A stretch of DNA of 64,000 nt from the sequence record MT446392.1. The stretch is one strand, 5' to 3'. The notes under the pieces were generated by a model that saw nothing but the letters and a program-made list of their open reading frames with translations, had not been told where the DNA came from and made no database searches. This document shows, one piece after another, positions 4,246 through 42,118 of the stretch. The stretch comes from Escherichia virus TH15. Position 1 is the stretch's first letter, and every line of letters starts with the position of its first letter. Position numbers and translations under genes: made by a program.

Positions 4246-4505
4246 CATTCGCAGAAGAACTACGCCAAATGGCCAAAGAGTCACAAGATAAAGTTGCAAA
4301 TGACTTTATTGCTATATTTCGCAAAGTGGCTATTGCCGCCGCCGAGAATGGCAAAGATGCTGTTAATATGGCAGTTTCTGAAAAAGAGTATGAAGAAGGA
4401 AACCGCGCAAAGATATCTGAATTTCTGCGAGCAGAAAAATTTACATCTTTTACCTGGAATTATGACTGGCAAGATAACAAACCAATGCTGTATGTAAAAT
4501 TCTGA
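4242..4505 (+). CDS. hypothetical protein
   Basis: 87-aa ORF, ATGA overlap with upstream ORF. Confidence 0.45.
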   Translation: MTFAEELRQMAKESQDKVANDFIAIFRKVAIAAAENGKDAVNMAVSEKEYEEGNRAKISEFLRAEKFTSFTWNYDWQDNKPMLYVKF

Positions 4506-4538: not shown

Positions 4539-4634
4539 GTTCTAGACCCTTTGAGACTATTAATTCCTTTCAGAGAAAGAAAGTATAGTGGGTCTAATTT
4601 ATAATGATATTTATAACATCAAAAGTGAGAGAAT

Positions 4635-14953: not shown

Positions 14954-14961
14954 TATTTATA
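14954..14961 (-). promoter_or_regulatory. T4-type late promoter TATAAATA upstream of gene 19
   Basis: 53 nt upstream of ATG 14901. Confidence 0.6.
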
Positions 14962-15019: not shown

Positions 15020-15070
15020 CCGTAGAACCGATTATGCTTTTATTTATAACACTGTATAATGGTTCTACGG
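15020..15070. repeat. 10-bp perfect inverted repeat CCGTAGAACC / GGTTCTACGG with 31-nt spacer in 18-19 intergenic region
   Basis: Read directly; spacer contains TATTTATA and TGTATAAT. Confidence 0.7.
15041..15048 (-). promoter_or_regulatory. second TATAAATA late promoter motif in 18-19 intergenic region
   Basis: Exact octamer inside loop of inverted repeat. Confidence 0.45.
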
Positions 15071-29072: not shown

Positions 29073-29080
29073 TATTTATA
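29073..29080 (-). promoter_or_regulatory. T4-type late promoter TATAAATA upstream of gene 9
   Basis: 28 nt upstream of ATG at 29045. Confidence 0.65.
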
Positions 29081-35482: not shown

Positions 35483-36040
35483 TTAATCCCTCGCGTATAC
35501 GTATGAACGCAATTTATCTGCACATCGGCTCCAGTTACCGACGATAGTTTTTGTGTAAACTTTTGTCATTGTCTTTCTTACTGGGGCCGGAGGTGGGTCT
35601 GTCTCGTTGCCTGCCCGACTATTACTACCACCAGAGTTCCCTGTGTCTCCTCCAGAGCTCTCTTCTTGAAAGTCATAGGTTAGGGTTACTGTGTATGAAA
35701 AGACCTTCTGGAGGCTCGCTGGGGCCCTCCAGAGATACAATTGAGTGCTCTTATCCACAGGAAGTTCTTCCCATGAAGCAGCAGTTTTGAATTCATCATC
35801 AAGCCGATATTTAAGTGCATCATCTGCAAATCCGAACACGGATTCATAAACACCATAAAGATGATTGCCCTCAACATTAACGCCAGGGGTGGCCTCATAT
35901 TCAGTTATATTTATTTCGACTAATGTTTCGTTTGTTTCTAATTGAGCTGTAAACGTAACATCGATTGAGGCTCCTTCCATGGAGTCTCCTAGGTCAGTGC
36001 TCATTGGGGTTATATTAGCCAATGTCAATCCTCGAACCAT
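35483..36040 (-). CDS. hypothetical protein in the 5.1/5.3 position; start uncertain (track ORF begins at non-ATG 36064)
   Basis: ORF between gene 5 and 5.4; first ATG at 36040, another at 36004. Confidence 0.5.
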   Translation of the reverse strand: MVRGLTLANITPMSTDLGDSMEGASIDVTFTAQLETNETLVEINITEYEATPGVNVEGNHLYGVYESVFGFADDALKYRLDDEFKTAASWEELPVDKSTQLYLWRAPASLQKVFSYTVTLTYDFQEESSGGDTGNSGGSNSRAGNETDPPPAPVRKTMTKVYTKTIVGNWSRCADKLRSYVYARD

Positions 36041-37757
36041 CAATAGTATATTGTCCAGATGCAATAGAACTCATTGAAGCCATAGTCTCGGACCAAGCAC
36101 CTGCACAAGTCCAAGATACAGTACCATTTACAGTCCAGTTTAAATTACCATTAGTCGTGCGAGTTTCATTACCTTCTACTAAGGTAGTCGCATCACCCTT
36201 AACAGTAACATCAGCATTTCCTTCAACAATAACAGTAACGTTGCCTTTAACTCTGAGTGTTCCATTACCTTCTACAGTTTTCTCTTCGTTACCACGAATA
36301 TGGATGGTTTCGTTTCCATCGGTCTGACGACGAACGTTAGCCATATTGTAATAGGTTTCATCACCGCCAACGTTGACTTTATTATTACCACCGACATAAG
36401 TACTCGAATCGCCCTGGGTCATATAATAACCATCGGCTACCGTCTTCGAAGTCTTACGACCATCTGGTGCAACTTCCTCGTAGGAGCCAGTCGGGTGAAT
36501 CAGTCGATAACGTTCTTGCCCTGGAGTGTTATCGAATTCCTGAATATGTCCGCCTTCGGTTTGCATTGTCTGCACATAAGGATATTCGCCCTTGTAACTT
36601 GATTCTGGCTCTTTAAATAGAATCCTCGTATCTTCTGGAGTCCACGGGTCGGCCGGGTCAGAATTTGTAGGGGCCGCAAAGGTTTGAATCATCCTATATG
36701 AACGCCCTTTAAATTCCATTTCTTTAGGGGCCATTATACCATATGATTCCATATTACCGGTAAGGATAATCATTGATACCCTTGATGCACGCCCTTTAGT
36801 TTGGTTAAACCATACTGAATTACGAGCTTCCTCAAATGCCTTTTTATAATCGCCTATTAACATTGCACTAAGCATTCCACGGAATTTAGCAAGTCCACCT
36901 AATCCCATTTGGAAAGCCATGTTTTCAAGAGCCATTTGTCTCGAACGGTTTTCTTTATTGTAAACCGGACCTACAACACTATGCCTACCTATATCACTTT
37001 GTACTTTCTTAAGGTCTTCCTGGAATAATTTGGAAGCCTCGTCCATTGATATTGCGCCAGGGTTACCTTTAACTTCACGGCCTATTTGATTAGATAATAT
37101 TTTGTTTATCTGATTCATATCTCTAATAGGTTGTGGTGTAATAAGGTGGCCAATCCCGACAGTCGGATAACCTTCGGTGTCCCAATATACTTTCAGACGA
37201 AGCCCCTCATCACGGTGAAGCATATTTTCAATTGTGAAATTAGGGTTATCGTCTGGCTTAACCTGACTTAAATCAAGACCATCAGGGTTAATACCCAAAT
37301 CAAGGTTTGAATCCTGGATTACGTTTGAAGTGGCATCATAACCAACTTCACCCCCTCGGTTAAGCGCTGCAGCATCATTACCGACATAAAGTGGGTATTG
37401 TCCTGTGGGGTCAGAGAAACCTTCGTTAGGATTTGCTTTTTGCCTTGAGGCTGAACCGTATGTACCAATGACAAGACCGTTGAGCTTCCACTTGTCTAAA
37501 AAGTGACCATACACCTGAGTCCCTGGTACCATACCAGTCATGGCAGTTTGAATTCCAGAAACCGACGCAGATGATGTTGGCATCAGCACAGACATCCATG
37601 GTAGGTCTTCAGTTCTGATACCTTTTACAGGCCCTTGTGATTTCTCATATGGATGCATACCCCATACACGAACACGGACTCTACCTTGCTGAAGCGGGTC
37701 CATTCGGTCTTCAACCACACCGACGAACCAGCTTACACTATCTGACATATTAATCAT
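36015..37757 (-). CDS. 5: gp5 baseplate hub / cell-puncturing device with lysozyme domain
   Basis: 580 aa; internal lysozyme block YWDTEGYPTVGIGHLI similar to e lysozyme; C-terminal beta-helix repeats VxGN. Confidence 0.95.
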   Translation of the reverse strand: MINMSDSVSWFVGVVEDRMDPLQQGRVRVRVWGMHPYEKSQGPVKGIRTEDLPWMSVLMPTSSASVSGIQTAMTGMVPGTQVYGHFLDKWKLNGLVIGTYGSASRQKANPNEGFSDPTGQYPLYVGNDAAALNRGGEVGYDATSNVIQDSNLDLGINPDGLDLSQVKPDDNPNFTIENMLHRDEGLRLKVYWDTEGYPTVGIGHLITPQPIRDMNQINKILSNQIGREVKGNPGAISMDEASKLFQEDLKKVQSDIGRHSVVGPVYNKENRSRQMALENMAFQMGLGGLAKFRGMLSAMLIGDYKKAFEEARNSVWFNQTKGRASRVSMIILTGNMESYGIMAPKEMEFKGRSYRMIQTFAAPTNSDPADPWTPEDTRILFKEPESSYKGEYPYVQTMQTEGGHIQEFDNTPGQERYRLIHPTGSYEEVAPDGRKTSKTVADGYYMTQGDSSTYVGGNNKVNVGGDETYYNMANVRRQTDGNETIHIRGNEEKTVEGNGTLRVKGNVTVIVEGNADVTVKGDATTLVEGNETRTTNGNLNWTVNGTVSWTCAGAWSETMASMSSIASGQYTIDGSRIDIG

Positions 37758-38356
37758 AGCGACTTCTCCATCTCACGAATAAGCGCCGAAATAAAAGATT
37801 CGATATCGTTAGGGTCGATTATCTTTATTTCTCGTTTGTATTCATTTTTGCGAATAGCATCTTCATAGATATCCACTGCGGCTAATGGACCTTCGTATTG
37901 TGGGTATAATTTGTTTTTATCGCCTTTATCGTACCAGGTGTATGGATTATCAGGATAAGAAACAAGGTTCCAGAATTTTTCACCATCTTCATTTACATGA
38001 TAAAGAACCTGATTGCCCCCGACATTCGAATATTTCTGAATTGATGCTTGATAAGATGCTTCTTGGGTACAAAGCCAACCATAATACGGGTCATAGATAT
38101 CATTGAGCATAAGGAGAACCCAATAGAGCTGAGTGTTGCCGTATAGCTGATATGCTAATTCTTCCGGGCGCGGAGCTCCGGCAATGTAATAGGTTTTTGG
38201 TGTATAATTGGCCGCGACTCTATCAAAGTAAGCACGATAATTTCTGAAGATGTCTGTCATTGGAATGCTTAAGACGTCTTCTTTCGTTAATGATGCCGAG
38301 TTTTTTCTGATTGTTTTAGCATCATAATCAATTGGGTTAAAAAATGAAAAAAGCAT
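37754..38356 (-). CDS. 53: gp53 baseplate wedge protein
   Basis: Start re-set to ATG 38356 (MLFSFFNPIDY..KT matches T4 gp53 N-terminus); ~200 aa. Confidence 0.9.
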   Translation of the reverse strand: MLFSFFNPIDYDAKTIRKNSASLTKEDVLSIPMTDIFRNYRAYFDRVAANYTPKTYYIAGAPRPEELAYQLYGNTQLYWVLLMLNDIYDPYYGWLCTQEASYQASIQKYSNVGGNQVLYHVNEDGEKFWNLVSYPDNPYTWYDKGDKNKLYPQYEGPLAAVDIYEDAIRKNEYKREIKIIDPNDIESFISALIREMEKSL

Positions 38357-38368
38357 AAAGCCTCCATT

Positions 38369-38376
38369 TATAAATA
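38369..38376 (+). promoter_or_regulatory. T4-type late promoter TATAAATA for gene 4; near-consensus TATAAATG on the opposite strand for divergent gene 53
   Basis: Exact octamer 29 nt upstream of gene 4 ATG. Confidence 0.65.
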
Positions 38377-38404
38377 AGTATATCAATATTTATTAGGAGG
38401 CTAT

Positions 38405-38854
38405 ATGGCGTACTCCGGGAAATTTAAGCCCACTAATATAGAAAAATATAAGGGCGACTGGAAGAAAATACAATACAGGTCAAGTTGGGAGGCTTGGTTG
38501 ATGAGATGGCTTGACAACCATCCGAACGTTGTTCAATGGGGTTCTGAGACTGTTATCATCCCTTACTTTAGCAATGCTGATGGTAAAAAGCGCAGGTATT
38601 ATATGGATTTCTGGGTTAAGTTTGATACAGGACAACAGTTCTTTTTCGAAGTTAAGCCATTAAAAGAAACAAGGCCTCCAGCCAAACCGGTTAATAATAC
38701 CGCCGCGAGTAAAAAGAGATTTATTAACGAGATGTACACCTGGAGCGTTAACTCTGACAAATGGAAAGCTGCACAAGCTACCGCGGATAAGATGGGTATA
38801 ACGTTCAGGATAATCACTGAAAACTCACTGAAAAAATTAGGATGGAAAGGATGA
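38405..38854 (+). CDS. 4: gp4 head completion protein
   Basis: 149 aa; MAYSGK....N..KY.GD.KKI.YRS.WE matches T4 gp4. Confidence 0.92.
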
Positions 38855-39675
38855 GTATTTTTACATTTATCAATGAATCTGCAGATAAACCGGGTCCGAA
38901 ACCCAGTAAATCCGAACAACAATGGGTTGAGATAGGGGTTGAATTTTATACAGCAAAAGAAAAGGGAATGACCTCGAAGAAGTTTGCTGAAGAGAAGGGA
39001 ATCAACTATTCAACCTTTACCAAAAGCATGTCAAGATATCATTCGAGAATTCAGACTGCTTATAAAGTATCCAAACTCAAAAAGAAACCTGCTGGTAAAC
39101 TTACAAAGGCTGAACGCCAGCTGATAATGGTGAATAGCTTTAGGAAGAGCATAAGAGATAAAATTGCTAACGAAGGTGCTGCAAGCAACACCAAATCTGC
39201 CAGATGGTTCGCTGAGACAATTAAGAAAGCTGTCAGAGGGCACGTAACGGCTAAACCTCAACCAGGTAAGATTTATGCTTATATCTATGATGCAAAGCAT
39301 AAGGATACTCTTCCGTACTGGGACAAATATCCATTAATCATTTATCTTGGGTTAGGTAAGCACAATTTGATGTATGGTTTGAACTTGCACTATATTCCAC
39401 CGAAGGCACGTCAAGAGTTCCTTGAGGAACTTCTTAAGCAATATGCTAATACTCCTACGATTACGAACAAGACTCATCTGAAGATTGATTGGTCAAAGGT
39501 GAAGGGATTTAAAGGGGCTGACCAGATGATTAAAGCATATATACCTGGTAATATAAAAGGCACTATCACTGAAATCAAGCCCAGCGACTGGGCAAATGTG
39601 GTATTACTCCCCCTCCAACAATTTATGTCGAAAGGCAAAAGATTCTCTTCACAAAAAGTATGGAGAAATTCATAA
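38842..39675 (+). CDS. 2: gp2 DNA end protector protein (alternative start at 38851 overlapping gp4 stop)
   Basis: 277 aa; synteny 4-2-3-1. Confidence 0.85.
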
Positions 39676-41785: not shown

Positions 41786-42118
41786 ATGAACATCAAGACT
41801 TATAACGAGTTTTTAGTCGAATCCGCCATCAATGAGACCAAATCAATTGATGATAGTGAAGGCTCTCTGAAATTTGGTTTATCCAAAAATGCAGATGGTG
41901 TTTTCTTTCAGATTGGTAATGAACGTTTTCAAACGTCCAAATATTCCAAAGCTGCAGTTGAAGCTGTCCTGAAATCTGGTGGCAAGTGGAAAGGCAAAGA
42001 AGGTACTAAAGAAATTGGTATCGCTGTTGACGGCGGTATGGCTTATTTCAAAATTGGTGATGAACAATTCATTATGTCTGCTCGCGGACGTAAAGAACTT
42101 GCAAAACTTTATAAATAA
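41786..42118 (+). CDS. internal-protein-like capsid-targeted protein (N-terminal CTS-like MNIKTYNEFLVE)
   Basis: 110 aa from ATG 41786; N-terminus resembles T4 IP capsid targeting sequence MKTYQEFIAE. Confidence 0.65.
   Translation: MNIKTYNEFLVESAINETKSIDDSEGSLKFGLSKNADGVFFQIGNERFQTSKYSKAAVEAVLKSGGKWKGKEGTKEIGIAVDGGMAYFKIGDEQFIMSARGRKELAKLYK

Follow-up and report, generated by a model that had tools for sequence, protein, structure and literature searches.

The spacer between the divergent genes 53 and 4 of Escherichia virus TH15, a T4-like coliphage of the VR7/VR26 group (genus Gaprivervirus), probably comprises two crossed late promoters of the T4 type, and this region is orthologous to the gene 4/53 region of T4. 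A stretch of 64,000 nucleotides (MT446392.1, referred to here as the window) was analyzed, and we infer late-promoter activity and start sites from the sequences, positions, conservation, enrichment, and strand bias of the promoter boxes identified in it. An exact TATAAATA at 38369–38376 (+) is a well-supported candidate for the late promoter of gene 4, and the probable promoter of gene 53 is the AATAAATA box at 38394..38387, which lies 15 bases from the site named for this gene in the original prediction.

Locus and Gene Organization

Over positions 37600–39000 the window is 95.4% identical to phage vB_EcoM_VR26 and 94.6% identical to VR7, and the matching region of both phages is annotated as genes 5, 53, 4, and 2. 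Genes 53 and 4 diverge here, the former opening a minus-strand block (53-5-...-7) and the latter a plus-strand block (4-2-3-...), in which gene 2 comes after gene 4. The features of the locus are as follows (positions in the window):

37754..38356, minus strand: gene 53, baseplate wedge subunit, with ATG at 38356 (open reading frame; 97% identity to VR7 gp53)
38405..38854, plus strand: gene 4, head completion/closure, with ATG at 38405 (open reading frame; 98% identity to VR7 gp4)
37757..36015, minus strand: gene 5, directly after gene 53
38361..38365, minus strand: Shine-Dalgarno sequence GGAGG of gene 53 (read from the sequence; complement CTCC conserved across the alignment)
38395..38400, plus strand: Shine-Dalgarno sequence AGGAGG of gene 4, abutting the predicted gene 53 box (read from the sequence; conserved in the alignment)
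38369..38376, plus strand: predicted late promoter box of gene 4, exact TATAAATA, −13 to −6 (exact consensus match)
38387..38394, minus strand: predicted late promoter box of gene 53, AATAAATA, with A at −13 (7/8 match; −12 to −6 invariant in the aligned spacers)
38372..38365, minus strand: TATAAATG, the gene 53 box of the original prediction (present; overlaps TATAAATA by TATA, 38369–38372)

The gap between the two ATGs (38356 on the minus strand and 38405 on the plus strand) covers positions 38357–38404 and measures 48 nt instead of the 49 nt initially given for the divergent region. Its sequence shows no difference from the spacers of VR7, VR20, VR25, and VR26. Transcripts reading through from gene 5 promoters cannot enter gene 53, since gene 5 comes after gene 53 on the minus strand. 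The stop codon of gene 53 overlaps the start codon of gene 5 in the sequence ATGA at 37754–37757, which suggests translational coupling of these two genes.

A TTG-initiated open reading frame of 210 amino acids (37754–38386) that runs across the spacer was discarded, since all relatives conserve the ATG at 38356 together with its Shine-Dalgarno sequence. Neither a sigma-70-like site nor a terminator was found when these were sought in the 53/4 spacer. The two predicted leaders fold no better than shuffled sequences (z = −0.27 and −0.44), indicating that both would be unstructured.

Late Promoter Boxes in the Window

Exact TATAAATA occurs 19 times in the window compared with 5.4 expected copies, a number that none of 100 shuffles attained. 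All copies at or to the left of 29080 are on the minus strand and all those from 38369 rightwards are on the plus strand, a bias that follows the prevailing gene direction on either side of the switch point at 38380. Ten of the 19 copies sit 18–48 nt upstream of the start of an open reading frame. This enrichment and strand bias imply that a T4-type late system operates in the genome; in VR7, which is nearly identical, gp33 is among the annotated proteins. Two of the minus-strand copies form a tandem pair (14954–14961 and 15041–15048, 87 nt apart). Another copy, at 42110–42117 (+), overlaps the preceding stop codon and is separated from the next ATG by 9 nt, a distance that may be too short for it to serve that gene.

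The box of T4 late promoters occupies positions −13 to −6 (PMC1524935), and an AT-rich sequence just downstream of it is typical of these promoters (PMC2988020). Across 18 well-placed exact boxes of the window and VR7, the −5 to −1 segment contains 2–4 AT of 5 positions (mean 3.4). The box assigned to gene 4 is situated 28 nt upstream of ATG4, compared with 18–35 nt for other well-placed boxes, and is invariant in 13 of 13 aligned spacers and in 18 of 18 distinct spacers. It is followed by AGTAT (4/5 AT) and adjoins the ribosome-binding site of gene 53. Placing the box at −13 to −6 puts the predicted +1 at the A in position 38382, and the predicted leader of 23 nt contains AGGAGG. Gene 4 thus possesses a consensus box with AT-rich sequence downstream and a Shine-Dalgarno sequence kept in the leader, and its transcription would start from about 38382 (+) via the exact TATAAATA. 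On this point the original prediction is borne out, as the box that it had named for gene 4 is an exact match of an enriched motif, conserved, and well positioned.

The predicted gene 53 box matches the 8-bp TATAAATA consensus at seven of eight positions, the sole mismatch being A at −13. It is located 30 nt upstream of ATG53 and is followed by TTGAT (4/5 AT). The predicted +1 is the A at 38381, and the resulting 25-nt leader contains GGAGG, so that this box also has an AT-rich segment downstream and a Shine-Dalgarno sequence retained in the leader. Transcription of gene 53 would accordingly be expected from about 38381 (−) via AATAAATA. A at −13 is found in nine of 50 listed T4 late promoters and is the commonest documented natural variant (PMC2988020). 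In other T4-like phages T(−13) is poorly conserved, and either A or T is used there (PMC1524935). The protein pockets of gp55 take bases −12, −9, and −8, not −13 (PMC7892883). Upstream of inh, T4 itself carries AATAAATA at the equivalent position. The window contains four copies of AATAAATA, of which the gene 53 box is the one that is well placed; the motif is not enriched at promoter positions.

For the minus-strand genes between 29110 and 38356, no other box with one mismatch at most was identified 10–60 nt before any gene start, and the next well-placed exact box, at 29073–29080, is beyond the gene 53–7 block. A single A(−13) box, the one predicted here, thus seems to serve all 9.2 kb of the baseplate block (genes 53 to 7). 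A search of the literature for 5′-end mapping at genes 53/4 or 26/51, or for VR7 late promoters, returned nothing specific, and no promoter features are annotated in the T4 GenBank and RefSeq records. A dRNA-seq dataset exists for T4 (GSE255091; bioRxiv 10.1101/2024.04.04.588121).

Conservation Across Related Spacers

Eighteen distinct gene 53/gene 4 spacers were compared, and 13 of the sequences were included in an alignment. They come from T4, the JS98 group (Dhakavirus), PEi20, the VR group, Yersinia phage fHe-Yen9-01, Citrobacter phage CF1, and several metagenomic relatives. All 18 spacers have an exact TATAAATA towards gene 4 at 25–31 nt upstream of the first ATG, which is that of gene 4 in 15 spacers and that of an inserted HNH endonuclease open reading frame in the other three. 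Towards gene 53, all 18 have [T/A]ATAAATA at 27–32 nt upstream of ATG53. The latter box is an exact TATAAATA in 12 spacers (T4, JS98 group, PEi20, and others) and AATAAATA in six; positions −12 to −6 are invariant and −13 alone varies (T in 12, A in six). In 17 of the 18 spacers it lies directly against the ribosome-binding site that belongs to the first plus-strand open reading frame (the inserted endonuclease in two of these), the exception being the relative L018, where it is found well upstream of that site. The sole invariant blocks in the 13-sequence alignment are the two boxes, the TCC of the gene 53 ribosome-binding site, and both start codons. These 18 spacers make up a compact natural dataset in which seven positions of the gene 53 box are fixed and −13 toggles between T and A, a pattern consistent with both the gp55 structure and the promoter logo in the literature.

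In relatives L015/L025, L018, and L028, where approximately 610–670 nt separate genes 53 and 4, an HNH-type homing-endonuclease open reading frame is inserted on the gene 4 side of the promoter module. The two-box module beside gene 53 is intact in all of them, and in L015 and L028 the endonuclease uses the former Shine-Dalgarno sequence and ATG position of gene 4. Megablast matches H10–H13 are split at this place, where an endonuclease or hypothetical gene is annotated in H11–H13 and H10 is unannotated. The spacer of a more distant relative (L030, a contig of 180,500 bp; approximately 1142–1197) is without TATAAATA and carries CCTAAATA 29 nt upstream of ATG53, which resembles the CTAAATA-type late motif of Aeh1 (PMC1524935).

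Alternative Explanations for Gene 53 Transcription

According to the original prediction, a single AT-rich stretch serves both genes back-to-back, reading as TATAAATA (+) for gene 4 and as TATAAATG (−) for gene 53. The stretch in question, TTTATAAATAAG, is present at 38367–38378 and does contain both strings, which overlap by 4 bp. A true shared-TATA pair, TATTTATAAATA, is used at gene 26/51 in VR7 and T4, and −6 is not a pocket base of gp55, such that G(−6) alone may not abolish recognition (PMC7892883). Nevertheless, we consider it very unlikely that TATAAATG drives gene 53. The string stops 8 nt short of ATG53, and the G at its end already belongs to the Shine-Dalgarno sequence, of which it forms the first base. 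Its predicted +1 at about 38359 falls approximately 3 nt before ATG53 and downstream of GGAGG, which would result in an mRNA without a ribosome-binding site. It is followed by GAGGC, whose 1/5 AT is below the 2/5 minimum of the 18 well-placed boxes, so that the combination of AT-rich downstream sequence and a Shine-Dalgarno sequence kept in the leader is missing. Seven copies of TATAAATG occur in the window compared with 4.6 expected (22 of 100 shuffles got to seven), and none of the other six is positioned 15–50 nt upstream of a gene start; the 50 kb of VR7 that were checked likewise had no copy 15–50 nt upstream of a gene. The alignment shows free variation in the bases immediately to the left of the gene 4 box. 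At the position of TATAAATG, T4 reads TATAAACA, no motif is present in the JS98 group, and relatives L013 and L014 read TATAAGAG and TATAAAAG, respectively; TATAAATG is also missing in L017 and L027.

As the promoter of gene 53, TATAAATG was rejected on its start site, GC-rich downstream sequence, conservation, and enrichment, although both strings of the AT-rich stretch are there as described. Most likely the string has no function and is a by-product of the palindrome TTTATAAA, which is present at the gene 4 box; TTTATAAA equals its own reverse complement, and this largely accounts for the near-match on the minus strand. In the window, TT precedes six of the 19 exact TATAAATA copies, and each of these reads TATAAA on the opposite strand. 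G(−6) might be tolerated by gp55, in which case TATAAATG might have a minor role. A related and somewhat less improbable explanation, which we still regard as unlikely, is that both minus-strand boxes fire, with AATAAATA giving a translatable gene 53 mRNA and TATAAATG a second transcript lacking the Shine-Dalgarno sequence, which would serve only genes 5, 5.1, 6, and 7 or compete with the gene 4 promoter. Extra transcription might help a 9.2-kb block (53 to 7) with no other box of one mismatch at most, and the 7/8 match of TATAAATG spares the pocket positions −12, −9, and −8 (PMC7892883). However, the positional, compositional, and conservation objections to TATAAATG apply here as well, and although the close relatives PEi20 and L024 carry this string, most lineages have lost it without a compensating box.

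The departure of the gene 53 box from the consensus could also mean that it was inactivated by a T-to-A change at −13 and that gene 53 is transcribed from further upstream, antisense to genes 4 and 2. This is the least probable of the explanations considered. On the minus strand between 38405 and 42200, the only boxes with one mismatch at most are TAAAAATA (38856), TATAGATA (40006), and TATGAATA (40181), all of which deviate at core positions and are within coding sequence. Moreover, A(−13) is the commonest natural variant (PMC2988020); at least three further lineages keep it at 53/4, and T4 itself has it at the inh promoter position. Transcription of gene 53 from the AATAAATA box remains the preferred reading. 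The correction matters little beyond annotation, namely that the promoter of gene 53 now predicts a translatable mRNA.

Crossed Layout and Its Possible Consequences

The gene 4 and gene 53 boxes are on opposite strands and crossed, 10 bp apart, and the predicted starts are on neighboring base pairs (38381 on the minus strand and 38382 on the plus strand). The overlapping divergent late promoters initially proposed can be retained insofar as both lie within the spacer, but the boxes are not arranged back-to-back. Both would be gp55-recognized late promoters of the TATAAATA class without a −35 element, and each box would sit within the leader of the opposite gene. Open complexes melt about −12 to +2, and the melted regions of the two promoters would thus overlap at approximately 38379–38384. 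Because the melted region and the polymerase footprint overlap, simultaneous occupancy appears unlikely; judging from general footprint sizes, the spacer would accommodate one polymerase at a time, and the two promoters would exclude each other.

It is conceivable, but in our view improbable, that the crossed layout is a conserved device and not an accident of packing. The spacer would then admit one gp55-polymerase-clamp complex at a time, the head-completion block 4-2-3 and the baseplate block 53-5-...-7 would have to initiate alternately, and T or A at −13 would tune their ratio. In a weaker version of this idea, TATAAATG may act as a third, decoy, or competing site.

Comparison With Known Systems

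The gene 4/53 region of T4 (NC_000866, 77338–77384) contains like genes in the same divergent arrangement, with a spacer of 47 nt compared with 48 nt in the window. As in the window, TATAAATA towards gene 4 abuts the gene 53 Shine-Dalgarno sequence, the late box towards gene 53 abuts that of gene 4, and the boxes are crossed. Different from the window with its AATAAATA, the gene 53 box of T4 is an exact TATAAATA. The gap between the boxes is 7 bp in T4 and the JS98 group and 10 bp in the window, and the predicted 5′ ends overlap by about 5 nt in the former, whereas they merely abut in the latter.

Crossed boxes of the form TATAAATA-N6-TATTTATT are present at the inh/uvsW junction of VR7 and the inh/segE junction of T4 (L102, 902–923, and L103, 22–43, respectively). 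Similar to 53/4, these junctions combine one exact box with one A(−13) box, each 27–32 nt from its ATG; they differ from it in the genes that they separate and in a box gap of 6 bp instead of 10 bp. The A(−13) box points to inh in both phages. The gene 26/51 junction of VR7 and T4 consists of TATTTATAAATA, in which two exact boxes on opposite strands share a central TATA, and this is the layout that had been proposed for 53/4. The 26/51 boxes of VR7 are 17 and 24 nt from their ATGs, and both leaders retain a Shine-Dalgarno sequence, whereas the corresponding minus-strand reading at 53/4 is a 7/8 match and too near the ATG. The 26/51 element, which VR7 and T4 have conserved, is found at 4548–4559 of L102 (115547–115558 of the VR7 record) and at 4451–4462 of L103 (T4). 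Two conserved layouts, crossed and shared-TATA, are seen at the divergent late junctions of this phage family, and they could serve to test promoter interference in clamp-activated transcription.

In Escherichia coli, the bioA/bioBFCD genes have overlapping divergent sigma-70 promoters on one short segment, for which mutually exclusive occupancy is expected. Unlike this system, the 53/4 spacer has, to our knowledge, no repressor or operator. It also differs in having no −35 element and in its predicted recognition by gp55 together with the gp33/gp45 sliding-clamp activator. As judged from sequence comparison, the 53/4 element is of a known kind and orthologous to that of T4, and its spacer is identical to those of published genomes.
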